A program made the position numbers and the translations under genes. Shown here piece by piece: positions 1 to 42,648 of a DNA stretch of 42,975 nucleotides. Origin of the DNA: a virus (lineage: Duplodnaviria > Heunggongvirae > Uroviricota > Caudoviricetes); IMG/VR virus record IMGVR_UViG_2663763400_000010; one strand, written 5' to 3'. The notes beneath the pieces are model-generated. The model saw only the letters and a program-made list of their open reading frames with translations. It was not told where the DNA came from and did no database searches. Each line of letters begins with the position of its first letter. The stretch's first letter is position 1.

Positions 1-198
1 ATGGCACTGGACAGTTATGCATCTCCGAATATTATTCCGGAGCTAAGACAACCGAATGCCGCAGCAGGTAAGATCACGCTAGGGGGGCTGGACAGAATGG
101 CTGTTACGCCCAGTGTGAAGAAAAGAAGGCTAAGTATGGTAGAATTTCCATACGCACAGACCTTGTTATCCGACTATACAGCCTGGAAGGCACTATGA
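1..198 (+). CDS. hypothetical protein, probably the 3-prime end of a gene continuing left of the window
   Basis: ORF reaches coordinate 1; its stop overlaps the ATG of the next ORF (ATGA at 195-198), suggesting an operon. No recognisable motif. Confidence 0.3.
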   Translation: MALDSYASPNIIPELRQPNAAAGKITLGGLDRMAVTPSVKKRRLSMVEFPYAQTLLSDYTAWKAL

Positions 199-983
199 CA
201 AATCTACAACTGGAAGAAAGATTTAGGGCGCTTGAGAAAGATTACGATGCGCTCATTTCCACAAAATATACTGCGCAGAACGTTCTCACTCACACTATGG
301 AAACCTATGTTGATTCTGGTAAATATAAAAACTGGATCGCCAGAGTGAAAAAGTTAATAGAGGACAGCTACGGAAAAGAGTCTGATTATTACAATGACTT
401 CAATACTGTAAACAGCAGGTGGTCTTCTAATTACAATACACTGATCAAAAGTTATAAACCGTTGTTTGATGCGGCGAGAGATGATCTTGCGCACTCTGCT
501 GTCAGTACTAATACTCCTCAAGAAGGTTCGCCGCTGAGCCTCGTACTTAATATTCTTAACAGGTTTCCGACCTTTGTTCGCCAGTTAAAGAGGCGGTACA
601 ACGGCCGTGCGCCGCTTGAAGTTAATGATGAGTATGACGTACAGGATTTGATTTATGCACTGCTGACGCTTCATTTTAATGATATTAGGGCGGAAGAGTA
701 TACCCCCAGCTTTGCGGGCGCGGCCTCAAGACAGGACTTTCTTTTGAAAAAAGAGAAAATTGTGATAGAGGTGAAGAAAACCCGTGAATCTCTGGGAGCG
801 GGTAAAGTTGGTGGAGAGTTGCTTATTGATATGGCGCGCTACCGCGCTCACCAAGACTGCGATACGTTGATCTTGTTTGTATATGACCCGGATTGCTACA
901 TAAATAATCCTTTGGGCGTGAAAACCGATCTGGAATCTAAAGACGCGGAAGGAAAAGTGAAGGTTGTTATTGCGCAGTTCTGA
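195..983 (+). CDS. hypothetical protein with C-terminal PD-(D/E)xK-like nuclease signature
   Basis: 262 aa from ATG at 195, translationally coupled to upstream ORF. C-terminal half shows D...ExK spacing (SRQDFLL...IVIEVKK) typical of PD-(D/E)xK nucleases; N-terminal half looks helical. Family not recognised; lower GC than phage structural genes. Confidence 0.45.
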   Translation: MTNLQLEERFRALEKDYDALISTKYTAQNVLTHTMETYVDSGKYKNWIARVKKLIEDSYGKESDYYNDFNTVNSRWSSNYNTLIKSYKPLFDAARDDLAHSAVSTNTPQEGSPLSLVLNILNRFPTFVRQLKRRYNGRAPLEVNDEYDVQDLIYALLTLHFNDIRAEEYTPSFAGAASRQDFLLKKEKIVIEVKKTRESLGAGKVGGELLIDMARYRAHQDCDTLILFVYDPDCYINNPLGVKTDLESKDAEGKVKVVIAQF

Positions 984-1016
984 CACGCTTAAGTGTCACC
1001 TTACAGGATTAGGTTT

Positions 1017-1065
1017 GCGGCCGTGCCAGCAGGACGAGCATGAAAAAGGCCGCTGGCACGGCCGG
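1017..1065. terminator. GC-rich stem-loop between convergent genes (possible bidirectional terminator)
   Basis: GCGGCCGTGCCAGC ...21 nt... GCTGGCACGGCCGG inverted repeat between the stop at 983 and the minus-strand gene ending at 1071. Confidence 0.35.
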
Positions 1066-1070
1066 ATTTG

Positions 1071-1364
1071 TCATCTTTGCCAGGTCAAATCAAAATCTAC
1101 GTGAAAATCCGCAGGCTTAAGCTCGCAACTGCCACCACGCCCAATTAACGACGTTATGTTTACAACGTTTGAACCTGTTGAGATGGCAAGTTGAGTGTCA
1201 TCTGTAAACGTGATGATTAGCATTTCAGTCTGATGAACCTGTACTCCAGTTTTCTGAAAACCAATCTGGACAGATTTCACCGTTTTCCCAACCATTTCAC
1301 GGGCTTGATTGATAGAGTAATTAGCTTCAACTTGTAGGTCATTCCTGAACTTGGGTAGTGTCAT
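1071..1364 (-). CDS. hypothetical small protein (97 aa)
   Basis: Clean ORF with no competing frame; no recognisable motif. Confidence 0.4.
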   Translation of the reverse strand: MTLPKFRNDLQVEANYSINQAREMVGKTVKSVQIGFQKTGVQVHQTEMLIITFTDDTQLAISTGSNVVNITSLIGRGGSCELKPADFHVDFDLTWQR

Positions 1365-1574
1365 TTTACATCCTCTTTAGTGAAGTTTTCGCTATTTAAA
1401 TCAGCAGCATTCCTTTTAAATCACTGGCATGTCAGCAGTGGATAGTCTGAGTGTAACGTCCAGTGAGGGGAATAAATATTGGTCAGACTTTGCACAAAAG
1501 AGCCAACTATCGCGGGCTCTCTCTCATCATGTGCGAAAATTGACCACAATATGAAATCCAGTTCCATTCCGAAA

Positions 1575-2399
<825 letters not shown>

Positions 2400-2495
2400 T
2401 CAATTGACAACTTATAATCCCTACTAGTTAGCATTATGATTTCCAGAGTGAGGAATATAAAAATCTCTGTTTCTGGCACATAACAGCCCTTAAGA

Positions 2496-2555
2496 TCGTA
2501 GCTCGCCATCATGGGGTGTCGGGGGGCGGAGGTTCAAATCCTCTCGTGCCGACCA
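2496..2555 (+). other. 3-prime fragment of a tRNA-Pro(GGG)-like gene (anticodon loop to CCA); att-core-like junction, not an intact tRNA
   Basis: 2509-2555 reads anticodon loop CATGGGGTG (anticodon GGG), variable loop, T-arm GGAGG-TTCAAAT-CCTCT, acceptor 3-prime strand CGTGCCG, discriminator A and CCA, matching recalled enterobacterial proL. Only degenerate similarity at 2496-2508, and no 5-prime acceptor strand (CGGCACG) or D-arm upstream. Confidence 0.6.
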
Positions 2556-2568
2556 AAAATCCCTTAAG

Positions 2569-2597
2569 AACCAGCCTATTATGGCTGGTTTTTTTAT
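2569..2597 (+). terminator. Rho-independent terminator just 3-prime of the tRNA fragment
   Basis: AACCAGCC-TATTAT-GGCTGGTT hairpin followed by a run of T. Confidence 0.6.
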
Positions 2598-2735
2598 GAT
2601 TGTTTTTTATGCGGAGAAATACCGGGGAATAATTGGGGTAAAACACCTTTAGGCTATTCACTTAGCCTACCACCATCAAAATCTTTCCGAATGTATCCAT
2701 CTCTTTTTTCTTATGCAGCTAAAACGAAGTCTTGA

Positions 2736-2755
2736 TACTGTTTATTTACACAGAT
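2736..2755 (+). promoter_or_regulatory. LexA (SOS) box, perfect CTGT-N8-ACAG
   Basis: TACTGTTTATTTACACAGAT about 45 bp upstream of the dinI-like ATG. Confidence 0.55.
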
Positions 2756-2763
2756 AAGAATAA

Positions 2764-2783
2764 TACTGTCTACAAACGCAGTA
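2764..2783 (+). promoter_or_regulatory. second, weaker LexA-like box (CTGT-N8-GCAG)
   Basis: TACTGTCTACAAACGCAGTA with one mismatch to consensus, directly upstream of the dinI-like ATG. Confidence 0.4.
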
Positions 2784-2796
2784 CAAAAGAAGTGTT

Positions 2797-3044
2797 ATGC
2801 GTATTGAGATCTCCATAGCCAAAGACAAAATGACCAAATGCCAAACGGCGCTGTGGACGCGTTAAAGGAAGAATTAACCCAACACATTGGCAAGCGTTAT
2901 GACGATGTGGAGATGATCGTAAAAGCCACCAGCAACGATAGTTTTTCAGTTAGACATACTGCAGATAAAGATTGAGCTAAAACTTTCGTTCAGGAAACTC
3001 TGAATGATACCTGAGAGTCTACTGAAGAGTTGTTTGTTCACTAG
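2797..3044 (+). pseudogene. dinI-like gene, apparently disrupted (frameshift in an A-run plus two in-frame TGA codons)
   Basis: Frame A encodes [14 protein letters not shown] then stops; the +1 frame continues [71 protein letters not shown]. Together these resemble DinI (MRIEVTIAK...IDAL...LQETWES). Short enough to be missing from the ORF track. Confidence 0.5.
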
Positions 3045-3399
3045 TTAGCACGTAGGAAATCATTCAATACTCGCACTATCGGAAGTTCACCAGCCAGTCG
3101 TAGCACGTCCTTGCAAACGACGTGCCTACGGTTTCAATCACCTCTCACCATCAATTCTATCAATAATAATTAAACAGCGCCTAGACAAAATAAATAACAA
3201 CAAGTCAACAACCTCGACAGGATGCCGATGGGATGATGAAGAGATAAGAAAGAATAACCAGTAAAGCCCTAAAACGTCAGCGTTCAGACGCGTTTTTTAC
3301 TTAATCGGTAACAAATACGTTGTATCATAGCAAAATAAAATGATTGTTCTAAATCAGATTAACTCCTCACTTTTGTACAATGTCGCTTACAGGTATACC

Positions 3400-3699
3400 A
3401 TGAAATCCGAGACGCTAACTGTCCAACAACTTTTTCAAGACCGCCGACAATACTGTGTTCCATTCTATCAACGTGCCTATGTATGGACTCAGCAAGACCA
3501 GTGGTCAGCTCTACTGGAGGATATCCTAGAGAAAGTACAATCCCGGCTCTCGGGTACAAAACCAACTCCCCATTTCCTTGGTGCGGTTGTACTGGAACCT
3601 CAATCAAAAAAAGGATTATTAGGTGTAGATTCCATACATATTATTGATGGTCAGCAACGATTGACCACTCTTCAATATGTTCTGGCATCCATCCGATTA
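3400..3699 (+). pseudogene. GmrSD-family type IV restriction-like gene, N-terminal fragment (DUF262-type), truncated by IS2
   Basis: Contains FYQRAYVW and [11 protein letters not shown] (DGQQR) motifs of the DUF262/ParB-like domain. ATG at 3400 preferred over the ORF track start at 3340. The frame runs straight into the IS2 left end, where a stop is supplied by the IS. Confidence 0.65.
3695..3699. repeat. IS2 target site duplication, left copy (GATTA)
   Basis: Identical 5-bp GATTA directly abuts both IS2 ends (3695-3699 and 5031-5035). Confidence 0.8.
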
Positions 3700-3790
3700 T
3701 AGACTGGCCCCCTGAATCTCCAGACAACCAATATCACTTAAATAAGTGATAGTCTTAATACTAGTTTTTAGACTAGTCATTGGAGAACAG

Positions 3791-4156
3791 ATGATTGATG
3801 TCTTAGGGCCGGAGAAACGCAGACGGCGTACTACACAGGAAAAGATCGCTATCGTTCAGCAGAGCTTTGAACCGGGAATGACGGTCTCCCTTGTTGCCCG
3901 GCAACATGGTGTGGCAGCCAGCCAGCTATTTCTCTGGCGTAAGCAATACCAGGAGGGAAGTCTTACTGCTGTGGCTGCCGGAGAACAGGTCGTTCCTGCC
4001 TCTGAACTTGCTGCCGCCATGAAGCAGATTAAAGAACTCCAGCGTCTGCTCGGCAAAAAAACGATGGAAAATGAACTCCTTAAAGAAGCCGTTGAATATG
4101 GGCGAGCAAAAAAGTGGATAGCGCACGCGCCCTTATTGCCCGGGGATGGGGAGTAA
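3791..4156 (+). CDS. insC: IS2 transposase OrfA (InsC)
   Basis: [41 protein letters not shown]..., 121 aa, HTH transposase OrfA. ATG at 3791 rather than the upstream alternative start in the ORF track. Confidence 0.85.
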
Positions 4157-5019
4157 GCTTCGTCAGCCGTTGTCTCCGGGTGTCGCGTGCGCAGTTGCAC
4201 GTCATTCTCAGACGAGCCGATGACTGGAAGGACGGCCGCCGCAGCCGTCACACGGATGATACGGATGTGCTTCGCCGTATACACCATGTTATCGGAGAGC
4301 TACCCACATATGGTTATCGTCGGGTATGGGCGCTGCTTCGCAGACAAACAGAACTTGATGGTATGCCTGCGATCAATGCCAAACGTGTTTACCGGATCAT
4401 GCGCCAGAATGCGCTGTTGCTTGAGCGAAAACCCGCTGTACCGCCATCGAAACGGGCACATACCGGCAGAGTGGCTGTGAAAGAAAGTAATCAGCGATGG
4501 TGCTCTGACGGGTTTGAGTTCCGCTGTGATAACGGAGAAAAACTGCGGGTCACGTTCGCGCTGGACTGCTGTGACCGTGAGGCACTGCACTGGGCGGTCA
4601 CAACGGGTGGCTTCGACAGTGAAACAGTACAGGACGTCATGCTGGGAGCAGTGGAACGCCGCTTTGGCAGCGAGCTTCCGGCGTCTCCAGTGGAGTGGCT
4701 GACGGATAATGGTTCATGCTACCGGGCGAATGAAACACGTCAGTTCGCCAGGATGTTGGGACTTGAACCGAAGAACACGGCAGTGCGGAGTCCGGAGAGT
4801 AACGGAATAGCAGAGAGCTTCGTGAAAACGATAAAGCGTGACTACATAAGTATCATGCCCAAACCAGACGGGTTAACGGCAGCAAAGAACCTTGCAGAGG
4901 CGTTCGAGCATTATAACGAATGGCATCCGCATAGTGCGCTGGGTTATCGCTCGCCACGGGAATATCTGCGGCAGTGGGCCAGTGATGGGTTAAGTGATAA
5001 CAGGTGTCTGGAAATATAG
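4114..5019 (+). CDS. insD: IS2 transposase OrfB (InsD), DDE catalytic domain; made as OrfAB fusion by -1 frameshift
   Basis: 301-aa ORF overlapping insC in the -1 frame; A-AAA-AAG heptamer at about 4108-4114. Confidence 0.85.
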
Positions 5020-5030
5020 GGGCAAATCCA

Positions 5031-5035
5031 GATTA
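5031..5035. repeat. IS2 target site duplication, right copy (GATTA)
   Basis: See left copy. Confidence 0.8.
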
Positions 5036-6625
5036 GCATTACGTGCTACGGATCTTTCCAGCTTAGAGGCTCTCATTTCGCCTTGCCTGAAAAACTCAAA
5101 CGAAGACACAATGCGAAATAAAGAAGTAGAACGCTTCAAACTGTGGCCAACTTTTCGGGATCAAACTCATTTTATTCAAAGTTTTAATGTTGAAAATATT
5201 GACGATCTCCGGGACGTATTCTCTGATAGTTTCACGCAGCATGGTACGTTGCGTAAGCATTTTAATCACCCGCCATCACTAGAAGCATTATGTTTTTTTA
5301 CTGAAGCCTTTATAAAATGGATTAAAATAGAAAACCACTCACCACAAGAAAATGCTGTAGCTCTAATTGAGGCTGTCTTAACAGATCTGAAACTGGTAAG
5401 CATATTTCTCGAAGCTGAAGATGATGCCCAAATAATTTTTGAAACATTAAATGGGCGAGGGGCGGAACTTCATGCTACGGATCTTATTCGCAACTATATC
5501 TTTATGTGCGCTGAGCATGAAAATATTAATGCTATTGAATTATATGAAAATGAGTGGAAGAGCTTTGAAGATAAATACTGGTCGGAAAAACAACGCCGTG
5601 GACGTATTAATAAACCACGCATGGAGTGGCTAGTACATGCGACATTGCAATCAGAAAGGCAACGTGAAATTGATCTGTCTCGCCTTTACAATGAGTATCG
5701 TGATTATGTAAGTAAGGACTTGTCTTCACAACGAGCAGATCTGCAAGTAAAGCGCCTCAAACAATATGCATCACAATATAAAGAATTGGTTGATGGTTTT
5801 GGCACAACCCCCATCTCACACTTTGGATATCGCATCGCAGACTATGATGTGACGACACTTTATCCGCTTGCTTTGTTCATTTCGATAGCTAACATCGCTG
5901 ATGATGAGAAAGCAGCCATGTATAATGATCTTGTCTCCTACGTAGTACGAAGAGCCGTATGTGGCCTGACGCCAAAGAATTACAACAATGTATTTATGAA
6001 TGTATTGCGGCACTTGGCTAAAACGGAAATTTCCAGTGTTGAGTTACGTAATATCCTCAATAACTTAAATGGCGAAGCCTCACGTTGGCCTGGTGACTCA
6101 GAATTTCTCAACGCTTGCATCAATGCTCCACTTTATCCTGGCAGGCTCGACGCACCGAAAATGCGCTCAATGTTAACGGAACTTGAAAGAGAACTTTGTC
6201 GCCAAGTAAAGACAGAAAAGCCTGATGTTCCAAATCTTTCTAATCTCGATATCGATCATCTTATGCCTCAAAGTTGGTATTCCTGTTGGCCTCTCGAAAA
6301 TGGTCGTATGGTGACAAATTCAGATGCTACGGTATTGAACCAAATTGTTCTGTCTGGAACCGATCTTACCCCTGAACAGCTACTGGTAAGGAAACGGCAA
6401 CAAGCGATATCTACTTTGGGAAATCTAACTTTGCTTAACCTTAGCGTAAACCGTTCTGTTCAGAATGCTGTATTTCTGAAAAAACGTGATGCTCTCATCG
6501 TCCACACCAATCTACGACTGAACATTCCACTTATAGTTAAGGATAAATGGGATGAGGATGAAATCCTGGAGCGGGGTAAAAAGTTGGGGGAAATTGCATT
6601 GAAAGTATGGCCAAAACACGATTAA
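5036..6625 (+). pseudogene. GmrSD-family type IV restriction-like gene, C-terminal fragment (DUF1524/HNH-like), downstream of IS2
   Basis: Same frame as the N-terminal fragment once IS2 and one GATTA copy are removed (...ASIRL | ALRATDLSS...). C-terminal region has LDIDHLMPQSW ... NLTLLNLSVNRS, the His-Me finger-like motif of DUF1524. The ORF track start at 4994 lies inside IS2 and is an artefact. Confidence 0.65.
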
Positions 6626-6720
6626 TGCAATTAATAAAATGATTATAGTGGCCTTACATTAGTAAGGCCGCTACTCACTATTAAATACTTTAATTTGCAT
6701 CAAGAACAGCAGTGTCAGCC

Positions 6721-6849
6721 CTAGGTCTCGGACTTTGTACCGCTTATCTTGTCTTCAAAAATCAGCTCGCATCCTGCACAGTTCAGCGCATTACGTTGTA
6801 GATCTGTGTTCTGGTCATTTGTTGACACACGTACATAGCCAATAAGCAT
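6721..6849 (-). pseudogene. pin: truncated Pin/Gin/Hin-family serine DNA invertase (first 42 codons only)
   Basis: Minus-strand translation MLIGYVRVSTNDQNTDLQRNALNCAGCELIFEDKISGTKSET then TAG; near-identical to recalled invertase N-termini (MLIGYVRVSTNDQNTDLQRNAL...). No invertase-like sequence in any frame downstream. Below the ORF track length cutoff. Confidence 0.7.
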
Positions 6850-6875
6850 GGTAGATCTCCCTGACAAAAGCAGGA

Positions 6876-7370
6876 ATGATGCCATTTGCTCGTTATTTCT
6901 GCATTTTCATAAACGTTGGTTTGGGAGAAGGCTCTGCATTACCTGTTGGTGTGCCTGTTCCATGGCCTTCAGCCACACCGCCAACAGGCTGGCTGAAATG
7001 CAACGGTGCGGCTTTTTCTGCTGAAGAATACCCGGAACTGGCAAAGGCTTATCCGACAAATAAATTGCCTGATTTACGTGGTGAGTTTATTCGTGGCTGG
7101 GATGATGGGCGCGGCGTTGATTCAAGGCGTGCGGTGCTGTCAACACAAGAGCCAACTGTAGGTACTTTTTATGTGGAGCTAGCTATCATCTCGGGAACTT
7201 TGAGCGGCTCAGGTGCTAAATTTACCGATTCAGTAGGGATTGGATCAACCAGTAGTAACATTACCGTTAGCAACGGTAATGACCAGTCCGTGTCGGGTAC
7301 AGTGGCCGTTAACCCCGTCGGTACCCGTCCACGCAACATTGCATTTAACTATATCGTGAGAGCAGCATAA
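6876..7370 (+). CDS. silent alternative tail-fibre C-terminal cassette (would be fused to the fibre N-terminus after inversion)
   Basis: No credible independent start; from 6930 encodes GSALPVGVPVPWPSATPPTGWLKCNGAAFSAEEYPELAKAYPTNKLPDLRGEFIRGWDDGRGVDSRR, typical of phage tail-fibre C-terminal (collar-type) domains. Reading frame is continuous through the crossover site. Confidence 0.55.
   Translation: MMPFARYFCIFINVGLGEGSALPVGVPVPWPSATPPTGWLKCNGAAFSAEEYPELAKAYPTNKLPDLRGEFIRGWDDGRGVDSRRAVLSTQEPTVGTFYVELAIISGTLSGSGAKFTDSVGIGSTSSNITVSNGNDQSVSGTVAVNPVGTRPRNIAFNYIVRAA
6904..6929. other. 26-bp invertase crossover site (gix/pix-like), invertase-proximal copy
   Basis: TTTTCATAAACG-TT-GGTTTGGGAGAA; its reverse complement matches the site at 8831-8856 at 21 of 26 positions (first 14 identical) and each site is an imperfect palindrome. 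Confidence 0.65.
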
Positions 7371-7972
7371 TGGATAAAGCAATATTAAATAGTGGACTTG
7401 TTGCTACAAAGGCAGGGGATATTACCGTTTATAACTATGATGGTGAAACTCGGGAATATATTTCCACTTCAAGTGAATATCTTGCCGTTGGTGTTGGTAT
7501 CCCGGCATATTCCTGTCTGGATGCACCAGGTATACATAAGGCGGGTTATGCTATCTGTCGTTCTGTGAATTTAAATTCATGGGAATATGTGCCAGACCAT
7601 CGCGGTGAAATCGTCTATAACACCGAAACGGGAGAATCAAAACAAATCACAGCACCGGGTGATTACCCCGAAAATACAACCACTATTGCCCCATTAACGC
7701 CATACGATAAATGGGATGGTGAGAAATGGGTGACCGATACTGAGGCACAGCATAGCGCCGCAGTAGACGCGGCAGAAGCACAGCGTCAGTCACTGATTGA
7801 TGCTGCAATGGCTTCCATCGGTCTGATTCAGCTGAAATTACAGGCCGGACGGAAGCTGATGCAGGCAGAAACAACCCGGCTTAACGCTGTGCTGGATTAC
7901 ATTGACGCGGTGACGGCAACAAATACCAGCACAGCGCCGGATGTCATCTGGCCTGAACTGCCGGAGGCGTAG
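7370..7972 (+). CDS. tail fibre assembly protein (partner of the silent cassette)
   Basis: 200 aa; C-terminus ...DYIDAVTATNTSTAPDVIWPELPEA is the conserved tail-fibre-assembly (Tfa) C-terminal region; start codon overlaps the cassette stop. Confidence 0.65.
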   Translation: MDKAILNSGLVATKAGDITVYNYDGETREYISTSSEYLAVGVGIPAYSCLDAPGIHKAGYAICRSVNLNSWEYVPDHRGEIVYNTETGESKQITAPGDYPENTTTIAPLTPYDKWDGEKWVTDTEAQHSAAVDAAEAQRQSLIDAAMASIGLIQLKLQAGRKLMQAETTRLNAVLDYIDAVTATNTSTAPDVIWPELPEA

Positions 7973-8387
7973 GCCATTCAATATCTGGCGCACAGGAAGT
8001 ATCGACCAGTTCCAGTGCGTCCAGATAATCCAGCCACGAATTATATTGCGCCAGTTCCTCGCCTTTCAGACGACCAATAGCAGCTTTGCCAGGCCACTGA
8101 TGGGTATTGATGTAGGTATTGACTTCTGAAACCAAAGATATTTTTTTCATTTCAGCCGTCAACACCTCATCCTCTTTTGAAGGGGGTGGGGAATTAATCC
8201 ATACTGGCCGTCCTGAACTGTCAGCGCCAATTTCTTTCCCTTCTGGATGCAGACCAAGAAATTGCTCATATGTTTCTCTGGTAATTTCAATAACATCATC
8301 AGGAAGCGTTCCCGCATCCTCATATTCTGGAAACAATTCTTGCAGATAAAAACTTTTACTTCCGGGTGAAAAGAATACTGAGTTCAT
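7944..8387 (-). CDS. tail fibre assembly protein (expressed orientation)
   Basis: 147 aa; C-terminus ...DYLDALELVDTSCAPDIEWPTPPAVQAR is Tfa-like; immediately downstream of the fibre gene. Confidence 0.7.
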   Translation of the reverse strand: MNSVFFSPGSKSFYLQELFPEYEDAGTLPDDVIEITRETYEQFLGLHPEGKEIGADSSGRPVWINSPPPSKEDEVLTAEMKKISLVSEVNTYINTHQWPGKAAIGRLKGEELAQYNSWLDYLDALELVDTSCAPDIEWPTPPAVQAR

Positions 8388-8389
8388 TA

Positions 8390-9133
8390 TTACCGTCCAA
8401 TGATTAACGCTGAGACGCTGGTATCTGAAGGAAAGGCTGCATTCAGTGGTTTGTCGACTTTGAACACAATCGTATTATTCCCCCTGACAGCGGCAAAAGA
8501 ACAAACCGCCGTCGCGTATGAACCTGTAATATTACTGGATACACCACCATAAGCTGTTGTTGATACCAGAGGGATAACGCCCAGCACCTTATTAGGAAAT
8601 ACAAAGGGCAATGTGGCTGTGGCAATATAAGACTTATTAGAACCTGTGATGGCATAAGCATTATCAGTCATTCCATTCATCGCCACTGGGCCGCTTATAC
8701 TTACAGTAACCATCTGAATGATTAGCCCGTCAGGTTGACGAATCACAAAATTTCCATTGCCACCAGTAACCGTCCAGAAAGACATATCAGGGATTTGGTT
8801 TTCCCCGTTGCCCACATTCCGTTTTGCCGCTTCTCCCAAACCAAGGTTTTCGAGAGCCGTTTTCACCGTGCCGTCCGATTTGATATCGCTAAACGGATTC
8901 TTGCGGCTTAACAGCAGCGCACGAAGCGCGGTAAGCAGCTGGTCGTGCCGCGCCTTCTCCAGACTGGCACCGGATGCCTCCACCACGCTGCAGAGTTCTT
9001 CCTGCAACATGTCAAAGTAGTCATCATCCAGATCGGTGGCAGGCGTGCCTGTCTGGGGGTTACCACGGGTAAAACCGTTCTTACCCGCGCCGAACTTATC
9101 CTTCTGCGCGGTTTTCGTGTCTATACGATGCAT
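8390..9133 (-). CDS. tail fibre protein (constant N-terminus plus current variable C-terminus)
   Basis: N-terminus [47 protein letters not shown]... is the conserved side-tail-fibre N-terminal domain; crossover site lies at ...ALENLGLGE. Confidence 0.75.
8831..8856. other. 26-bp invertase crossover site inside the tail-fibre gene
   Basis: TTCTCCCAAACC-AA-GGTTTTCGAGAG, inverted relative to 6904-6929. Confidence 0.65.
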
Positions 9134-9136
9134 GGA

Positions 9137-9721
9137 TTACTCCGGATATTTAAAAATTACGTAGGTATGCGAAGGGCAGAGTTTGTTAAGCACACATTCG
9201 ACGACGGTGTCGCCCCAGATACGCAGCGCGGAATCACAGGGATCGCCACATGTCATCCAGGTGCTGTTGGTGGCGGCTGGCATGTTGACCTGCCAGTAAT
9301 ACCGCCATTCCGGCGCATTCACCGCGTCAGTACAGGCCGATGAGCAGGTGAACGTGCTTTTGTCGTATCGCGTGATGGTGGCGTCTGGTCTGCCCAGGGC
9401 AGCAAGCTGTGCAAGGTAAAAATCCTCATTGATGCCGCCCGCCAGGTTAACCTTCGCATCCAGTCGTTGCTGACGCTGGCGAAGGGTCTGTGTTCCTGCG
9501 GGAATACATTCATCCGGCAGGCCGCACAGACGCTCCCAGCGATTTATCAGTTCGGTGGTGGTGCGCGGATCCAGCTCCCGCATCAGGGCATCCGCACGCT
9601 GATGAACGCGGGTTAATGACTGTGCCGCACCGGCAATCGCCGGATCGCTGGCTGACCACGCCGGACCGGGCGGCAGCAGTGCCGACAACAGACGGATGTA
9701 ATCATCGTTTGTCACGCCCAT
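9137..9721 (-). CDS. tail protein, Mu gp48-like / YmfQ-like (DUF2313)
   Basis: 194 aa between baseplate J and the fibre gene, the conserved position in Mu-type tail modules; sequence pattern recalled as YmfQ-like. Confidence 0.55.
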
Positions 9722-10770
9722 GAAATCGTCCCCAGAACCGCCAGTTCATTTTTTGCAATGGAGATATTTTCCGCCGGTGCAAGCAATTGATGGCTGTATT
9801 CCCCGTTCGCACCGGAAATCGCTTCACTGATACGCGACACCTTCAGTTCTCCCTGCGGATAACCATCACGCAGCAGGAACGAACGCAACTCCGCGGTGAT
9901 GGCAGCCCGTATTTCCGGTGTATCCGGCGTCACACGGATATGAAAATCCACCGTATGCGCCACCGGCCTGAACACATACAAATCAGAGCCTGCCACCGGG
10001 GCCAGTGGCCCGATATGTTGTCTTGCCGCCGTTTCCGTTGATTCTTCCGGAATGGGATTAATCAGGTCACTGCTGGCAATCATCACACCGACAGTCCCCG
10101 TTCCCATCCAGTGACGGTATGCCCATGCGCGGGTAATGCCGGGCAATTCTTTAGCCCAGACAACATAGTCCCCGTCAGCCCCGCCCTGAGGCGTCCAGTA
10201 ATACCGCTCAATGACGCGGGCGCGCCACGTTTCCAGCTCTTCAGTATCAAATCCACCTGTCAGAGTGTCTGCCACGCCGGAAGACGGCAGACCATTAACC
10301 GGCGTGACCAGGATTAATGACGTACCGTCGTCAGCGTTACCGACCGCGCCTGCACTTGAGCAGGCGATCGGCACGCGCAGGACACCACCGGCGCTGGTTG
10401 CATCGGCAGTTGCCGTGTACTGAATCAGGTCATCGCGCTGAATAACACTCCCGGCGGTCACCTTCAGGCCATCGCTGACGCCTTCCCAGCGCATATACCC
10501 GCTGGCAGTCGTGGCCCCCTTGCGCGGACACCGTTTCATCGCAGCATGTCGCGCCAGCCAGGACTCATCGCACAGGTCAGGCAGCATGTTCATTGCCAGA
10601 TAATCGATGTACCCGTAAACCGTATGCAGCGCCGCCGCATACACCTTTGCCCGCACGTCTTCATCCATGCGCCGGAGCGTGTCGCTGACGTCCAGCCTGG
10701 CGAATAAATCGTTACGGAGCATACTGATATTTTCTGCCAGCGTCGGGCGCTGAAATTCACTGTCCGCCAT
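9712..10770 (-). CDS. baseplate J-like protein (Mu gp47 family)
   Basis: 352 aa; position and size fit baseplate J; overlapping coupled starts with neighbours. Confidence 0.7.
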
Positions 10771-11185
10771 GCGTTATCGCACTCCACAGATCATCTAAAG
10801 AAATCATTACCGGTCCGTCACGACGCCAGAGAGTGATACTGTTACCCAGTTCATTAATCCCGGTGCGGAGGATATCCAGATCAATACGGGACACCACGCC
10901 GTCATCAATCATCCATTGCAGGCATTCGCGGATATACCCCCTTACCGTCTGCACCAGCTGATTGGTCAGTTTGCTGCGCTGAAGCAGCCACAGTCGGGAG
11001 CCGTAACGGTCATTCTGTACCGCAGGCCAGGTATCCCCCCACCATCCCATCGGGACGTCGGCGTTGTCATCAGGCTCCGCCCGCCGCCAGGTAAACAGGG
11101 AAATCACCACGGCGCGGGTCAGCGGATCCAGCGGTGCGCTGGCGCAGGTGCGTTTACCGTTCACCGTCAGCCACAGTTCCATCAT
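10757..11185 (-). CDS. baseplate wedge protein (Mu gp46 / GPW-gp25-like)
   Basis: 142 aa between V-like and J-like genes. Confidence 0.55.
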   Translation of the reverse strand: MMELWLTVNGKRTCASAPLDPLTRAVVISLFTWRRAEPDDNADVPMGWWGDTWPAVQNDRYGSRLWLLQRSKLTNQLVQTVRGYIRECLQWMIDDGVVSRIDLDILRTGINELGNSITLWRRDGPVMISLDDLWSAITHGGQ

Positions 11186-11730
11186 GCCTCCATCGCTTTA
11201 TCAGGTTTGTCGGTGTTACTGCCCTGACCGTTCTCTCTGTGACGATGCCCGTTATAGGCAAGCCGCATCGCTGACATGGTGGTGCCGCTGGAGTCGCACA
11301 GGTCTTTCACCTGTCCTGTCACTTCCAGGTCCATTTCAAAACGTGCTTCAGGTGCATTGCGAAACGTGATCGTTTTACCTGCACCGTCCACCACGATCCC
11401 CTCCCGGGTCAGCGTCACAGACTGCCCCTGATCGTCATAGACCGCCACCTCACCCGTCTGCAGCCCTTTCAGGCGGTAGCGCCGGTCCGACACCGTAACA
11501 ACCACCGCATGAGAACGGTCACCATCCGGAAACAACACCACCGCTTCCGCACCGCTGTTTGCCCTTGCGGTAAAACCGTAGGGTTCAAGATGTTCAACCC
11601 CGGCTTTGGGTTCACCGGCAATCAGGGACACATCCACGGTCTGACATTTCGTGGCGGCACTGATGCTTTTCACCACTGCCCGCCCAATCAGGCCGAGGAG
11701 TTGTCGCTGCATGGCTTCAATCGTACTCAT
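11182..11730 (-). CDS. baseplate assembly/spike protein V-like (Mu gp45-like)
   Basis: 182 aa; conserved position in the baseplate module. Confidence 0.6.
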   Translation of the reverse strand: MSTIEAMQRQLLGLIGRAVVKSISAATKCQTVDVSLIAGEPKAGVEHLEPYGFTARANSGAEAVVLFPDGDRSHAVVVTVSDRRYRLKGLQTGEVAVYDDQGQSVTLTREGIVVDGAGKTITFRNAPEARFEMDLEVTGQVKDLCDSSGTTMSAMRLAYNGHRHRENGQGSNTDKPDKAMEA

Positions 11731-12809
11731 CAGAACGGGTCCTCCTGTACTCTGGCTTTTTTCTTTTTCCGCGCGCCGGGGGCTTCGGGTTCAGGCAGAT
11801 AAGCATCAGGTGGGCCGACACGGATTTCCGTCAGGGTGCCGTTCTGGTCCTGAGTAAACGTGACTTCCGAGACAAGCAGTTCGGTATTGTCGAAACCACA
11901 GACCGGATCGAAGACAATCACCCGCTGGTTGGGCTGCCACAGCGTACCGTTACCCTGTCGCCAGCCCTGCACCACATAGGTGGTTTCATCCGTCCGCGCC
12001 GCCCGTTGTCGGGCTTCAAAGTCAGCACGCGCAATACAGCCTGCCCCCGTAGCCTGCCCTGTCTGCCTGATATACATCGGACGGTAACGGGCAATAAATG
12101 CGTCCTCTGTGCGGGCCCGCAGCGCGCTGGTGGTGGCCTCACCGAAATCATCGTCGTTTCCAGCACGCTGCCCCGCCACCTGGTAAACAGAAAACCGCTC
12201 CCGGATACTCTTCTCCGTATCGCAGGAAAGGATGTTTTCCCCGAGTACCAGCGCAGTATGTGCCCGCGTTGAGCCAATACCGCCAATCACCAGCCTGCCG
12301 TGTGGGTCGTCGTAAGCCAGTGCCTGCTGCTGACCGAGTATTTTGTTGATTACCTCAATCACCGTTTCACCGTGATCGGGCTGGACGTCAGGAATAACAC
12401 CCGACGGCGCACCGTTGTTCACCACCTCAATGCCGAAAGGCGCAGCAAGCGCCTGCGCAATCTGTACCAGCGATCGTCCGTTAAACTGTGTCGGTTCGGC
12501 TGCACAGTCAATCAGGTCAGCGGTCAGACTGCGTCCGGCAATACCGGTGCTGACCGAACGGGCATCGTAACGAACGGGCGTCGCCTCCACCCAGCCGGTG
12601 ATCACCAGCTCATCACCAATCAGCACCTCCACTTTTGAACCGTTTTTAATGCGCGGCTGAAGCGTGGTGATACCCTCATCACCCGGCCACTGGCGGGTGA
12701 TCTCCACACTGAAATCCCGCGCCAGCCGTTCAATACCGGCACCGATGCGCACCGATGTCCAGCCATTCCACTCCCGGCCATTTACCCGTAGCGTGACGTT
12801 ATCGTTCAT
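11730..12809 (-). CDS. tail/baseplate hub protein (Mu P-like)
   Basis: 359 aa; follows the DNA circularisation gene as in Mu-type tails. Confidence 0.6.
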   Translation of the reverse strand: MNDNVTLRVNGREWNGWTSVRIGAGIERLARDFSVEITRQWPGDEGITTLQPRIKNGSKVEVLIGDELVITGWVEATPVRYDARSVSTGIAGRSLTADLIDCAAEPTQFNGRSLVQIAQALAAPFGIEVVNNGAPSGVIPDVQPDHGETVIEVINKILGQQQALAYDDPHGRLVIGGIGSTRAHTALVLGENILSCDTEKSIRERFSVYQVAGQRAGNDDDFGEATTSALRARTEDAFIARYRPMYIRQTGQATGAGCIARADFEARQRAARTDETTYVVQGWRQGNGTLWQPNQRVIVFDPVCGFDNTELLVSEVTFTQDQNGTLTEIRVGPPDAYLPEPEAPGARKKKKARVQEDPF

Positions 12810-16205: not shown

Positions 16206-16441
16206 GCCGCAGCATTCAGGTCTGCCGGAGACATCTGGTCGACAGAGTTTTGCGGCACTTTCGCCAGCCGCACAATGTATTTCGATACCACATGCGCCAG
16301 AAGTCTGACGGACTCATCCTGATTCATCTGGTAGGGATACCCCAGCTCGCGGACATCTTTCCCGGTGGGCTCATCAAACTCCAGTACGGAGAGTGTCTCG
16401 CCATGAGCGGTAATCGGTTTCTTTAACTCAAGCTCTTTCAT
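16172..16441 (-). CDS. tail assembly chaperone (G-like, upstream frame)
   Basis: 89 aa between tube and tape measure genes. Confidence 0.6.
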   Translation of the reverse strand: MKELELKKPITAHGETLSVLEFDEPTGKDVRELGYPYQMNQDESVRLLAHVVSKYIVRLAKVPQNSVDQMSPADLNAAAWLVAGFFLQA

Positions 16442-16797
16442 TACTGGTAATCCCCTTCTTCACCGTGGAACTCAAGATCAACCGTCCCTTCTTCGGCATT
16501 ATGGTTCGCTTCGCCGTGCAGCCAGGCAGACGACAGTACATAGACCTGACCGTTCGCCAGCTCGGCAGTGATGGTCATCTCATCAGACGAGGTGATTTTG
16601 CTCACCGGAAAATTCTTCGGCACCTTGAAGGTCCCTTTAACATAAGGCGCACGGTGAGTTTCCTTGCGGTCCACTGAACCGTCCAGGCCGATGATGTCAT
16701 CATTGACCGTCCTGTTCATGGGCACCTCAATGCCGCCGGTCAGCGATAGCTGCTGACCGTCAATTTTGAAATAACAGGTTCCCCCGATACGGGCCAT
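16441..16797 (-). CDS. tail tube protein (Mu gpM-like)
   Basis: 118 aa immediately downstream of sheath; start and stop codons overlap neighbours. Confidence 0.7.
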   Translation of the reverse strand: MARIGGTCYFKIDGQQLSLTGGIEVPMNRTVNDDIIGLDGSVDRKETHRAPYVKGTFKVPKNFPVSKITSSDEMTITAELANGQVYVLSSAWLHGEANHNAEEGTVDLEFHGEEGDYQ

Positions 16798-18293
16798 TAT
16801 GCGGACTCCTCTGAATACTGAAGACGGAACTGGTTAACCACGGCAAAGACACGCAACTGGTTAACATAGTCAGGCGGGAACAGCGTGTTCAGGCGGTTCG
16901 GATCGCTGGCATCACGCTCCACAACCAGGTACTGCTTAAAAAGTTCGTAGTTTTCCACGATCCCCGCACGCTCAAGCTGACGGTAGGTTGCCAGCAGTTC
17001 CCCTTTGATCACCGCCGGGGTGACAATCGCCTGACCGGGACCAAAGCGGGTACCGTCGCTGGCAAGCTTGTGACGCCCGTACTTACTGGTAATGACGGAT
17101 TTCAGTTTGCGCAGTACATACGCACTGGTATGCAGCGTCTCGCTGTCGAGGTAGCTGTTATCCGCAACCCCGTAAGCGTTTTTCCTGTACGTGGTGACAT
17201 CACGCTGAATGCGCAGTACCCCGCTTTCGACATACGCCGTTGCCACGCCATGAGACAGCAGGGTCTTTTGTTCGGTCATCGTGAACCGTTTCCCCTTCGG
17301 CGCAGGCAGCATACCCACCAGCTCACCGGTCTGCGTGGGACGTGCCGGATCGTTGCGGATAAACACCGCTGCGCGGGCGGTACGGCTTGCCGCCAGCTCG
17401 TCGGCAGGCGTCTGGGTGTCTTTTTCGTACCCCGCCAGGGTAATGTGCTGCTGGTTAAACTGGTCACCTGCGGTCACCAGTTCTGACAGCGTGCCGGTCT
17501 TTGCCGTATACACATGACCATACAGCTGACGCGCATAGCTCCAGCGACCGCTGGTATCGTTCATCTCGGTCACCAGCGTGTTAACGGAGGCCGTGTCGTT
17601 GAACGGCAGGCCGATATAATCAAACGGCTCATCCGCCATTGCAGCCACAGCGCCGGTGAGAACCGGAGCACCCGTTCCGGCGGTACCCGTCACCACGGCA
17701 ATCTGTACGCCCGCTGGCAGCACTTCGCCCCCACCAAAGCCGTAGTAATTGAGGCTGACAGGAATTTCATTCCCGCAAAGCCCCTTATGACGCGCGGTCA
17801 GTGTGACCACGCCTGCCGAAGATGAAGCCGTAAACGGCAGGGTCGGAACGGCATTGATGGCATCCTGGATACTGCTGGCAATCATCGTAACGTTATCGCC
17901 GTTAGTCACCGGTACCTGCACGCGGGTACGTCCCACATACACATTCACCGTGCCGGTTTCGGTTGCCGCCCCGGTCACCGTCAGCGTAACCGTTGCCGCC
18001 GCGCCTGTGGATTCAGGAACGGCAATCACATACAGCTCGCCAAACGGGTCAGTCTGGCGATAAGCCTCGACCATACGCGCCAGCTGACTTCCCGCACCAC
18101 AAATCTGGCGTGCATAGTCTGCCGACGGCATCAGTACCAGACTGTTGGCAACAATCTCTGCACCGTTATTGGCATGACCAATCAGCAGCGATGCTCCGCT
18201 GTCCTGTGCAGTATTCGCAGCCTGGTTATCCATTTCCGCATAAAACAGCGGAACCAGCGTATTCGACGGAATGGTGTTAAAGCTTATCGTCAT
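16797..18293 (-). CDS. contractile tail sheath protein (Mu gpL-like)
   Basis: 498 aa; MTISFNTIPSNTLVPLFYAEMDNQ... resembles Mu-type sheath N-termini. Confidence 0.8.
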   Translation of the reverse strand: MTISFNTIPSNTLVPLFYAEMDNQAANTAQDSGASLLIGHANNGAEIVANSLVLMPSADYARQICGAGSQLARMVEAYRQTDPFGELYVIAVPESTGAAATVTLTVTGAATETGTVNVYVGRTRVQVPVTNGDNVTMIASSIQDAINAVPTLPFTASSSAGVVTLTARHKGLCGNEIPVSLNYYGFGGGEVLPAGVQIAVVTGTAGTGAPVLTGAVAAMADEPFDYIGLPFNDTASVNTLVTEMNDTSGRWSYARQLYGHVYTAKTGTLSELVTAGDQFNQQHITLAGYEKDTQTPADELAASRTARAAVFIRNDPARPTQTGELVGMLPAPKGKRFTMTEQKTLLSHGVATAYVESGVLRIQRDVTTYRKNAYGVADNSYLDSETLHTSAYVLRKLKSVITSKYGRHKLASDGTRFGPGQAIVTPAVIKGELLATYRQLERAGIVENYELFKQYLVVERDASDPNRLNTLFPPDYVNQLRVFAVVNQFRLQYSEESA

Positions 18294-19016: not shown

Positions 19017-19519
19017 CTGCGTCGTCGCTCCGGCTTCAGTGATTTACGTAATTCCCGCGCCAGAAAATAGCGTGTCCAGCTGCGGTTCTTTTCAAGCGTT
19101 TCCACCATAAAGTTATTACGTGGAGCCAGTCGCCAGCCGCTGCCACCGGATGCACCACGATGATGGCTGCGACGACGCTTTGCCCCTCGCCTCACGCCAT
19201 AGAACAAAAAAGCCGGATAAAAATCACCGGTGATACGGCGGTTTCCCTCTCCATTACGCTGGTTAGGGGCTATACGTGCCATAAAACCAGGGCGATGTTT
19301 ACTGGCTCTGGGTACCATGTAACCAATCGAACGAGCCAGGCGTCCGGTCTGATAACCGGGGTTTTCACCCGGTGCCGACCGCGCACGGCGCATCACCAGC
19401 CGACGGGCATCACGCATATGACGCTGACCAATCGTGACAAACGCCCGCCGGACACGGGCGCGGTTAAAGCGCATCTCCGCGGGCTGCTGAAAATCAACGT
19501 GCAAAAAGGAAGTCGTCAT
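19013..19519 (-). CDS. head-tail joining protein (HK97 gp10-like)
   Basis: 168 aa basic protein in the head-tail connector cluster. Confidence 0.5.
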   Translation of the reverse strand: MTTSFLHVDFQQPAEMRFNRARVRRAFVTIGQRHMRDARRLVMRRARSAPGENPGYQTGRLARSIGYMVPRASKHRPGFMARIAPNQRNGEGNRRITGDFYPAFLFYGVRRGAKRRRSHHRGASGGSGWRLAPRNNFMVETLEKNRSWTRYFLARELRKSLKPERRRR

Positions 19520-37300: not shown

Positions 37301-37585
37301 TTAATTATCCCCTCTAAGAACAGAGTCATCCAGATTAGCCGAATCCTTGTTGTTGGGGAATAACCAGGCCCACCTCGCCTGATGTGGCTAAAAGCAGGCA
37401 CATAACAGCTAAGTATTTTCAACCAGAGAGAATCCTTAGCGTTGTGGTGAATGCGGCTCAGCGCACGCGGGTTAAGGTTGAGGCTGACAGTCGACCTTCT
37501 GTGGATACCCACCCGCCTGGTGTGCAACCTTCGCCAGGCACCGGGAGGCACCCGGCACCACAACTTTATGCTGTGTGTAGTCCTG

Positions 37586-37631
37586 GCGGTACCAGCTTGT
37601 ACCCTTGCTTCCGGCTGGTACCGCTCTTTTT
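37586..37631 (+). terminator. strong intrinsic terminator-like hairpin in the early-left leader
   Basis: GCGGTACCAGC ...17 nt... GCTGGTACCGC (11-bp stem) followed by TCTTTTT. Confidence 0.5.
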
Positions 37632-37720
37632 ACAAAACAGAGAAGAGCATCACCGGACGACGGGCTCATAACCCAATCCACCCGGGCGGCTGCCACCGCA
37701 GGTGTTCTTCTCTGTTTTGT
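37632..37720. repeat. 15-bp perfect inverted repeat enclosing 59 nt (structured leader element)
   Basis: ACAAAACAGAGAAGA at 37632-37646 and its exact reverse complement TCTTCTCTGTTTTGT at 37706-37720; non-coding. Confidence 0.5.
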
Positions 37721-37768
37721 GGAGAAACCAACCGACCTTGCAGGGTCGATATGATGAGGAGCAGCAAA

Positions 37769-38131
37769 ATGGCTAGCGAACGCAGTACCAACGTGCAGGA
37801 ATTTATCGGGGAGCTGGACGGCGGCGTATTTGAAACCAAAATCGGCGCAGTTCTCAGTGAAGTCGCTTCCGGTGTGATGAACACGAAAACCAAAGGTAAG
37901 GTCTCGCTCAACCTGGAAATCGAACCGTTTGATGAGAACCGTGTGAAAATAAAACACAAACTCTCATATGTTCGTCCGACTAACCGCGGGAAAATTTCCG
38001 AAGAAGACACCACCGAAACGCCGATGTATGTCAATCGCGGTGGTCGCCTGACTATTCTGCAGGAAGACCAGGGACAATTACTGACTCTTGCCGGTGAACC
38101 TGACGGAAAACTCCGCGCAGCAGGTCATTAA
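37769..38131 (+). CDS. YfdP-like early protein
   Basis: ATG at 37769 with a GAGGAG ribosome-binding site (MASERSTNVQEFIGELDGG...); recalled to resemble CPS-53 YfdP. The upstream in-frame extension of the ORF track (from 37451) is rejected. Confidence 0.5.
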   Translation: MASERSTNVQEFIGELDGGVFETKIGAVLSEVASGVMNTKTKGKVSLNLEIEPFDENRVKIKHKLSYVRPTNRGKISEEDTTETPMYVNRGGRLTILQEDQGQLLTLAGEPDGKLRAAGH

Positions 38132-38196
38132 TATCGTTCTTAATTAACTGATTATTTATCTCATCACTGAATATCTTTATATAGTGAGGACTTATT

Positions 38197-39021
38197 ATGT
38201 CTCAGAACTTAGACGCAACCGCAATTAATCAAATCCATGCCCTTATTTCTGCTCAGGGTGTTAATGAAATTATCAGTAAGATTGGTGCCGACGCAGTGGC
38301 ATTACCTGAAAATTTCCGCATTCATGATCTGGAAAAATTTAATTTAAATCGCTTCCGTTTCCGTGGTGCGCTTTCCACTGCCAGCATCGATGACTTTACC
38401 CGTTATTCTAAAGATCTTGCGGATGAAGGCACCCGCTGCTTTATCGATGCCGATAATATGCGTGCCGTCAGTGTGCTTAACCTGGGTACTATTGATGAGC
38501 CTGGTCACGCAGATAACACCGCCACTCTCAAACTGAAAAAGACAGCACCGTTCTCTGCTCTGTTGTCTGTTAACGGCGAGCGTAACTCCCAGAAGTCACT
38601 GGCAGAATGGATTGAAGACTGGGCCGACTACCTTGTGGGCTTTGATGCTAATGGTGATGCCATTCAGGCAACAAAAGCGGCTGCGGCAGTCCGTAAAATC
38701 ACGATTGAAGCAAACCAGACCGCTGATTTTGAAGACAATGACTTCAGCGGCAAACGCTCCCTGATGGAGTCTGTCGAAGCGAAGACCAAAGATATTATGC
38801 CAGTGGCATTTGAATTTAAATGCGTTCCGTTTGAAGGCCTGAAAGAACGTCCGTTTAAATTACGCCTCAGCATTATCACTGGCGATCGTCCTGTACTGGT
38901 TCTGCGCATTATTCAGCTGGAAGCAGTGCAGGAAGAAATGGCTAACGAATTTCGTGATCTGCTTGTTGAGAAATTCAAGGACAGCAAAGTAGAAACCTTT
39001 ATTGGTACTTTTACCGCCTGA
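38197..39021 (+). CDS. YfdQ-like protein (DUF2303)
   Basis: 274 aa, same length and gene order as recalled CPS-53 yfdP-yfdQ-yfdR; good ribosome-binding site. Confidence 0.55.
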
Positions 39022-39148
39022 TTTCATTACTGCAAATGCCCCTGCGGGGGCATTTATGGAAACGTAATTGACTCAATAATCGCCGGATGGTGAGGGCTTT
39101 CTTTTACCAGAATTCAGCGCGGTGCAGCGCATATACGTGGAGAACAAA

Positions 39149-39673: not shown

Positions 39674-39781
39674 AAATCAGCACGTACGAATTCAAACTCT
39701 GCCATAAAAGAACATATAAGTAATTTATTAACATATAGATATAGGTTATATTACAAATTGAAAAATTATTGGAGAGCAACA

Positions 39782-42620: not shown

Positions 42621-42648
42621 TGGTTCCGTACTGATCAACTATCGCCTC

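Follow-up and report, generated by a model that had tools for sequence, protein, structure and literature searches.

What is half of a tRNA gene doing in a phage genome, and to which mobile element does it belong? The question arises from a 42,975-nucleotide stretch of DNA from a Caudoviricetes virus (hereafter, the window), near the left end of which lies the 3' part of a tRNA-Pro(GGG) gene followed by a terminator. The original prediction took this fragment for the attachment (att) core of a tRNA-targeting integrase and for a junction left by tandem or sequential integrations at one tRNA-Pro hotspot, with the nuclease cassette on its left (positions 1-2381) as a separate integrated element. 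The comparisons described below lead to a different answer. The fragment is very probably a nonfunctional relic of a proL-type att site, carried inside a prophage whose working site is ssrA.

The tRNA fragment and its phage-side arm

Window positions 2509-2555, with the sequence TCATGGGGTGTCGGGGGGCGGAGGTTCAAATCCTCTCGTGCCGACCA, are identical at 46 of 47 bases to nucleotides 31-77 of the native Escherichia coli proL tRNA-Pro(GGG). This span runs from the last base of the 5' strand of the anticodon stem to the CCA end, and the sole mismatch is a T-to-G change at 2526. Farther upstream, 8 of 11 bases match at tRNA nucleotides 20-30, a likeness that is absent from the copies in strains CFT073 and HS and could be of chance origin. 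Nucleotides 1-19 match no better than chance (6 of 19), which means that the fragment lacks both the acceptor 5' strand and the D-arm. The relic as a whole can be placed at 2498-2555 on the plus strand, of which 2509-2555 is the solid part. The "CCAT" at 2506-2509 is the left boundary common to all copies of the relic in ssrA prophages (a G-to-A difference from the CCGT of the tRNA), and the bases at 2498-2505 are a degenerate extension that may have arisen by chance.

The kinship of the fragment with proL is also seen in genome-wide comparison. When window positions 2440-2660 were used in a BLAST search, the annotated tRNA-Pro and its terminator were matched in each of the 5,426 complete genomes of E. 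coli that were searched (86-88% over positions 2498-2597; E-values of about 1e-22 to 1e-26). The 28-mer GGAGGTTCAAATCCTCTCGTGCCGACCA, which represents the T-arm and acceptor segment, occurs a single time in the window, and 0 of 100 shuffled sequences match it. An intact tRNA at this place was considered and ruled out: ARAGORN called 0 tRNA genes in the window, Rfam found nothing at the gathering threshold, and a permissive Rfam scan scored the tRNA model at 15.5 bits, below its gathering score of 29. There is no complete cloverleaf here, and the fragment is not a functional tRNA-Pro gene.

Just downstream of the core, positions 2566-2593 form a hairpin whose stem is 11 bp long, and a T-run then extends to 2597. 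The minimum free energy of the hairpin is -17.7 kcal/mol (z = -5.5 against shuffles), and the combination of a G+C-rich hairpin and a U-tract at 2566-2597 is computationally predicted to be a Rho-independent terminator. In its description of the fragment, namely an orphan 3' part of tRNA-Pro(GGG) that lacks the acceptor 5' strand and the D-arm and is followed by a strong terminator, the original prediction was borne out.

The sequence to the right of the core bears on ownership. Here the window carries a phage-type arm beginning TTAAGAACCAGCCTATTATGGCTGG, which differs from the native proL flank, AAGAAAAAACCAACCCTTACGGTTGG. Since the arm is of the phage type, the fragment is part of the right-hand prophage. 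Positions 2556-2597 (plus strand) are the phage-side (P') copy of the region downstream of proL, including the terminator, and are identical to the sequence that follows the intact tRNA in Survcare253, a true proL lysogen. The P' arm continues over 2598-3237 on the same strand, with a DinI-like pseudogene at 2797-3014, and is conserved in 252 E. coli genomes whether it is located at proL or at ssrA. Positions 2545-2800 of the arm were found at 255 places in these 252 genomes with an identity of 97.6-100% (99.2-99.6% in the true proL lysogens sampled). In a sample of 60 matches chosen to be spread across the set, the arm adjoins an annotated tRNA-Pro in 26; in the others it does not, and those that were checked are at ssrA. 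Conservation of the relic and the P' arm in 252 genomes would be compatible with either a retained function or recent spread.

Where such a core works as an att site, its surroundings look different. The phages Eeyore and Flotzy carry an integrase and, within about 135 bp downstream of it, the proL core, then a terminator-bearing arm, a UmuD-like gene, DinI, and tail-fibre genes, and their arm is a diverged version of the one in the window (82-89% identical to positions 2510-2638 and 2510-2601). Survcare253 and APEC O78 have an intact tRNA-Pro at yejM-proL with the window's right-hand sequence after it; 16-17 kb farther downstream, ahead of yejO, the core occurs again. The integrases of Eeyore and of the Survcare253 prophage at true proL share 77% identity. 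The Eeyore, Flotzy, Survcare253, and APEC O78 phages and prophages and the window all have the same core of ~54 bp (CATGGGG...CGACCAAAAATCCC), and the arm in the Survcare253 and APEC O78 prophages is the window's own sequence, with DinI and tail-fibre genes next to it. Judged by the match of both core and phage-side arm to true proL lysogens and free phages, the fragment is a relic derived from a proL-type att site. In all of the proL systems, however, the core either lies next to its cognate integrase or forms the end of an intact tRNA and has a second copy as its partner, whereas the window's fragment is without the 5' part of the tRNA, a partner copy, and a cognate integrase.

An ssrA prophage with variable defence cargo

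The evidence on att sites outside the window comes from E. coli IHE3034, which was compared over window positions 1-3699 and 5026-11395 (100% and 99.97% identical, respectively), and from near-identical ST95 genomes that span the whole first 7 kb of the window, IS2 included. The same block is present in UTI89, APEC O1, NU14, and other ST95-type strains. Compared to IHE3034, the window has an extra 1,331 bp, which is a copy of IS2 at 3700-5030, flanked by the target duplication GATTA and lying within a GmrSD-type gene. The only difference seen in strain 729_270514_x_12 is an insertion of the IS66 family (ISCro1) at about window position 2441. In IHE3034, window position 1 is 386 bp past the end of ssrA, and the right end of the block leads into glaH-lhgO-gabDTP. 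With ssrA on the left and glaH on the right, the locus is therefore the ssrA-glaH hotspot and not proL. The native proL of IHE3034 lies at 2,504,432-2,504,508, between yejM on one side and a yejO remnant and narP on the other, 549 kb from the ssrA-glaH block. It is intact by ARAGORN and free of inserts, its neighbours are those found in K-12, and no prophage is present there.

At the left end of the element, the tmRNA gene (ssrA) was called intact and is followed by about 160 bp that include a terminator. In IHE3034, the last ~25 nucleotides of ssrA together with this ~160-bp segment make up a direct repeat of ~190 bp in total. The attL copy occupies a span 228-416 bp to the left of window position 1. 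The attR copy, an ssrA-like repeat of ~190 bp, is found to the right of the window, at a distance of 1,070-1,249 bp and immediately ahead of glaH. The window narrowly misses both att sites, and no ssrA core was found within it. The whole block of ~43 kb (the cassette, the fragment, the prophage, the integrase, and three more genes) is enclosed by the intact ssrA and the ssrA-like repeat. Bounded on one side by an intact ssrA and on the other by a direct repeat of the ssrA 3' end, the element is an ssrA-integrating prophage. The attR core of IHE3034 has a 5-bp deletion (CTCCA), so this copy may no longer be able to excise; in CFT073, the attR core is undeleted. A different position for attR, directly after the integrase, was also considered and rejected. 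Homology to other genomes stops there at 41992, which is a mosaic boundary inside the 3' end of the integrase gene; past this point the integrase reading frame continues in CFT073, and att-like sequence is absent.

The ssrA-type integration module starts on the plus strand at 39669-40856, where homology to SfV-type phages and to proL-resident prophages has ended (position 39668). It includes a 296-aa open reading frame (ORF) at 39758-40648 and an 81-aa ORF at 40651-40896, both on the plus strand, the latter in the position of the annotated excisionase in the phages phiNP and LLS. Next is a tyrosine integrase (40857-42029, plus strand) of an ssrA-targeting family, whose domains are Arm-DNA-bind_2 and Phage_integrase; closely related DNA is present in about 436 E. 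coli genomes. Its identity is 85.6% to the integrase of LLS and 91% to that of the Citrobacter phage phiNP; in the LLS record, the depositors placed a tmRNA pseudogene and an attP about 850 bp downstream of the integrase. At the DNA level, the window's integrase is about 97-99% identical to the integrases of CFT073 and of the circular record described in the next paragraph. It has no significant similarity to the proL-type integrases of Eeyore and Survcare253, and a tblastn search of the window with both of these found no proL-type integrase (best E-value 0.058). A prophage with its own integrase does lie to the right of the fragment, as the original prediction had it, but that integrase is unrelated to the proL type.

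A circular form of this kind of phage has been sequenced. The circular record NZ_CP148393.1 (44.6 kb) entered the database as a plasmid and represents an entire lambdoid phage genome; its integrase is 97% identical in DNA to the window's. Downstream of the integrase come three cargo genes, an ssrA core (18029-18047) accompanied by the ~190-bp homology, a pair of small genes, a decayed proL relic (19074-19121) with its terminator, a DinI-like pseudogene, and tail fibres. The relic is about 1 kb from attP in this genome; in the window element, its distance from attL is about 2.9 kb. In E. coli HS, ssrA is followed by the same two small genes, the relic, and DinI. This is exactly the order predicted for recombination at the ssrA core of NZ_CP148393.1, and HS holds the integrated form. 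In CFT073, ssrA is followed by one different gene, the relic, and DinI; about 45 kb farther on, at the same ssrA-glaH locus, come the integrase, two genes that differ from those downstream of the window's integrase, the ssrA repeat, and glaH. In Ec-042, the integrase precedes an ATPase and a methylase, the ssrA core, and another island. The ~190-bp ssrA segment is found again in the circular phage and in the attR of CFT073, whereas Ec-042 shares its ssrA-core part only. There is, in other words, a circular form with an ssrA-core attP and an integrated form that matches it. Taken together, the circular record, the integrated forms in HS and CFT073, and the attP of LLS indicate that this integrase family uses ssrA and that the proL fragment is internal to the phage. 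The prophage would thus move as one unit by site-specific recombination of the ssrA type, with the relic uninvolved.

Read from left to right, the element consists of ssrA and the att homology, a first stretch of cargo (slot 2, positions 1-2497), the proL relic and its terminator (2498-2597), the DinI-like pseudogene, a GmrSD gene, SfV-like tail, head, and packaging genes, lambdoid early genes, yfdPQR, the 296-aa and 81-aa ORFs, the integrase, a second stretch of cargo (slot 1), and the ssrA-like repeat (attR), beyond which is glaH. Slot 1, between the integrase and attR, covers 42021-42975 on the minus strand with a 205-aa ORF and a STAS-like (DUF4325) ORF, and its third gene lies beyond the window end, followed by attR. 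Slot 2, between attL and the relic, has genes on both strands: a DpnII/MboI-like protein with a restriction endonuclease domain (195-983, plus), a 97-aa ORF (1071-1364, minus), and the GIY-YIG type IV restriction enzyme PD-T4-3/CMoRE (1575-2381, minus; PADLOC E = 8.6e-137). The last of these matches PDB entries 9U7U/9U7Z with E = 2e-174; the entries are of the APEC O1 enzyme, a type IV endonuclease that acts on 5hmC and glucosyl-5hmC DNA (PMC12923530). A second type IV system is found on the other side of the relic, where the left arm of the prophage carries the GmrSD-type (DUF262) restriction gene (3340-6625, plus) that is split by IS2.

From the ssrA att homology to the relic, slot 2 holds three different gene sets in ST95, in CFT073, and in HS and the circular phage. 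The genes at 1-2381, which the original prediction treated as a separate integrated element bounded by the fragment, are variable defence cargo of the same phage. The possibility that the GIY-YIG cassette is an independent mobile element was considered and set aside, as its homologue in E24377A sits in the middle of a lambdoid prophage. Variable cargo downstream of the integrase is a feature that the window shares with LLS, phiNP, NZ_CP148393.1, and the smpB-ssrA prophage of CFT073, and in those relatives in which the att site has been located (LLS, NZ_CP148393.1, CFT073, and Ec-042), the cargo lies between the integrase and the att site. In NZ_CP148393.1 and CFT073, the att homology is made up of the ssrA 3' end and its terminator. 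Unlike the window prophage, however, LLS has no proL relic from its early genes through int and attP to a tail-fibre gene, nor does phiNP in the 8 kb that surround int and reach the end of its record. The idea that the relic is a universal trait of the integrase family was rejected on this ground, and the relic is a passenger particular to one group of E. coli lineages, those of ST95, CFT073, and HS.

Two other groups of elements offer useful comparisons. The tail, head, and packaging genes of the window are 97-98% identical to those of SfII, SfI, SfV, and vB_EcoM-689R6. In the group of SfV, SfII, SfI, and SfIV, this likeness extends over about 16 kb, and the early region is also common to them in part, as far as yfdR. 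Nucleotide similarity to the SfV group stops at yfdR (39668), so the integration module beyond it is not common to them. The SfV-group phages integrate at thrW, and they have O-antigen modification genes in place of the DinI and GmrSD genes of the window prophage. The cryptic prophage CP4-57 of E. coli K-12 occupies what we take to be the same hotspot, in the ssrA to glaH (csiD) region. Its P4-type integrase gene (intA) is directly next to ssrA, whereas the window prophage has an integrase of another domain composition, located at the opposite end of the element.

Origin of the relic and its rivals

How could a proL att site come to lie inside an ssrA prophage? Clues are found in the proL-resident prophage remnant of APEC O78, which shares the DinI pseudogene, the GmrSD gene, and an invertase remnant with the window. 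It is 98.5-99.1% identical to window positions 2498-6930 and 96% identical to positions 37344-39668, and similarity ends at 39668. The ancestor would have had a backbone like that of Eeyore and Flotzy, in which a proL-type integrase, an attP made of the proL core and terminator, DinI, and tail fibres stand together. Its proL module would then have been replaced by one of the ssrA type, comprising a hypothetical ORF, an ORF in the excisionase position, the integrase, cargo, an ssrA-type attP, and more cargo. One breakpoint of this exchange would lie just after yfdR, at window position 39668/39669, and the other at the left edge of the proL core, at about 2498-2509.

The bases immediately left of the core (CCAT, or CACCAT in the HS lineage) are nearer to the tRNA side, CACCGT, than to the phage P arm, CAGTGA/CGGTGA, so the relic looks attL-like. 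The exchange probably took one of two routes. The phage could have recombined with a prophage resident at proL, or a proL integrase could have inserted its element into a secondary site of an ssrA element, with a later deletion through the homologous early genes. Illegitimate recombination at attL and secondary-site integration would fit the sequences equally well. What happened afterward can be read from the mutations that each lineage has acquired. The window has its private T-to-G change, CFT073 has a C-to-A change in the CCA end, and the relic in HS and the circular phage has two substitutions, a 2-bp deletion in the acceptor strand, and a damaged terminator stem. The common left edge and these private lesions point to one origin followed by neutral decay. 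Since the replacement, the relic would have been drifting neutrally, and today the relic and terminator would be no more than the fixed right-hand edge of a slot in which the defence genes vary.

The alternative that survives best holds that the relic is kept for a function, whether as a secondary attB-like docking site, as a homology anchor for the swapping of cargo, or as an insulating terminator. In both the window and CFT073, the 47-nucleotide core is nearly complete, the terminator hairpin is strong by computation, and the slot is flanked by two conserved segments that each consist of an RNA 3' end plus a terminator. The cargo also varies exactly up to the left edge of the relic in three lineages, which would be accounted for if the relic were a landing site for proL integrases or if it formed, with the copy of the ssrA terminator, a bracket of homology or terminators for cassette swapping. 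Retention for one of these more specific roles seems improbable. The lesions of the HS and circular-phage lineage have left its architecture unchanged, and the examined stretches of the ssrA-type phages LLS and phiNP do without a copy. Moreover, the P' arm is present at only 255 places in 252 genomes, so nested double occupancy is at most very rare. A retained function is on the whole improbable.

Much less can be said for a live att junction formed by tandem or sequential integrations at the tRNA-Pro hotspot, with the nuclease cassette as a separate element on the left. It is true that the fragment derives from an att core, that its left flank is not tRNA, and that prophages do integrate at true proL in other strains; in Survcare253, for example, the two copies of the core are found 17 kb apart at proL. 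At the locus studied here, by contrast, no second proL core or any other long direct repeat is present in the window, and the only other copy of the core found in IHE3034 is the native proL itself, intact and empty 549 kb away. The locus is ssrA-glaH, the window encodes no proL-type integrase, and neither an ssrA nor a proL repeat was found between the nuclease cassette and the prophage. CFT073 and HS carry different cargo in slot 2, and one circular phage genome bears the arrangement in full. The fragment is not an active att junction of a proL integrase. The part of the original prediction that traced the fragment to the att core of a tRNA-targeting integrase stands in that it derives from a proL-type core, but it is not a present-day integration junction, and the tandem or sequential proL integrations are contradicted by the locus, the missing partner copy, and the integrase alike. 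This reading is very improbable.

Least probable of all is that the chromosome was rearranged, for instance by inversion between a prophage at proL and another at ssrA, and that a proL junction was thereby moved to ssrA: the proL prophage remnants do share segments of 96-99% identity that could serve as substrates for homologous recombination, but in IHE3034 proL sits with yejM, the yejO remnant, and narP as in K-12 and has no prophage, ssrA and glaH flank the block in normal order, and the relic is inside a circular 44.6-kb phage genome.

Meaning for annotation and phage mosaicism

The preferred explanation, a relic of a proL-type att site within an ssrA prophage, opens no new biological question. 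Scars of att sites or tRNA fragments left by the exchange of integration modules in mosaic temperate phages are a well-known phenomenon, and literature searches returned nothing specific on this relic or on the attachment site of this prophage. Its value lies in part in annotation. Half of a tRNA gene with a terminator inside an island is easily misread as the boundary of that island, and here such a misreading would split one ssrA-integrated prophage into two and assign three defence genes to a phantom island. The relic is also a clean, datable case of integration-module replacement, with mapped breakpoints (39668/39669 and about 2498-2509), donor-type relatives that reside at true proL, and a circular form in which the relic rides along.

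Restriction genes on either side of the tRNA relic

The left end of the prophage carries two modification-dependent restriction systems, PD-T4-3/CMoRE and GmrSD, one on each side of the decayed proL tRNA-Pro fragment (the relic). The first is a GIY-YIG open reading frame at 1575-2381 on the minus strand, within the cassette, the variable cargo slot to the left of the relic. It matches the APEC O1 enzyme in PDB entries 9U7U and 9U7Z (E = 2e-174), which PMC12923530 describes as a type IV endonuclease with specificity for DNA containing 5hmC and glucosyl-5hmC. On the other side, the GmrSD/DUF262 type IV restriction gene of the prophage (3340-6625) is interrupted in the window by a 1,331-bp copy of IS2 (3700-5030), with GATTA, its duplicated 5-bp target, on either side (3695-3699 and 5031-5035). 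In IHE3034, the GmrSD/DUF262 gene is unbroken. The corresponding arm in APEC O78 also contains an IS2, but at a different position.

The product of another cassette gene, at 195-983 on the plus strand, is 262 aa long and has a restriction endonuclease domain of the DpnII/MboI type (Pfam E = 9.5e-49). In PADLOC it gives partial matches to "Aga_Helical-REase." The cassette annotation shows no methyltransferase next to this gene.

Pseudogene, attachment site and mosaic boundaries

Next to the relic lies a DinI-like pseudogene (2797-3014) with a frameshift and an internal stop. It is annotated as such both in ST95 strains, where it lies in a prophage at ssrA, and in APEC O78, where it lies in a prophage at proL. 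From this shared annotation, the gene may have been inactivated before the exchange of a proL-type integration module for an ssrA-type one.

At the other end, the ssrA core in the attR of IHE3034 (11651-11830 of locus L002; 1,070-1,249 bp past the window end) is missing 5 bp, CTCCA. These bases are retained in ssrA itself, in the attR of both CFT073 and Ec-042, and in the attP of the circular phage. Judging from this deletion, the IHE3034 copy of the prophage may be locked in.

Nucleotide homology to the integrase genes of about 300 other genomes stops at 41992, 37 bp short of the stop codon, which itself overlaps the last bases of a 205-aa open reading frame running towards it (42021-42638). 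In this region (41992-42038), the C-terminus of the integrase seems to form a mosaic border with the cargo slot.

The segment with the tail-fibre and tail-fibre-assembly genes (window 6625-8400; 16250-17761 of locus L005) adjoins a 123-bp invertase remnant. It is flipped in strain 729_270514_x_12 relative to IHE3034 and the window; it is therefore still subject to inversion, presumably by an invertase acting in trans.

proL-like segments in other prophages

In the proL-resident prophage of APEC O78, the downstream att copy (L019 18020-18097) is a second 78-nt tRNA-Pro in RefSeq. Despite this annotation, ARAGORN found no tRNA there, and the phage P arm may mimic the 5' half of a tRNA.

In the Salmonella phage Gifsy-2, an unannotated segment at NC_010393.1 44256-44334 (L011 1507-1585), about 1.5 kb from sseI, resembles the T-arm, acceptor strand and terminator of proL and shares 91% identity with window 2521-2598. 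Gifsy-2 is not known to integrate at proL. The Gifsy-2 example suggests that relics of a similar type are scattered among lambdoid phages.
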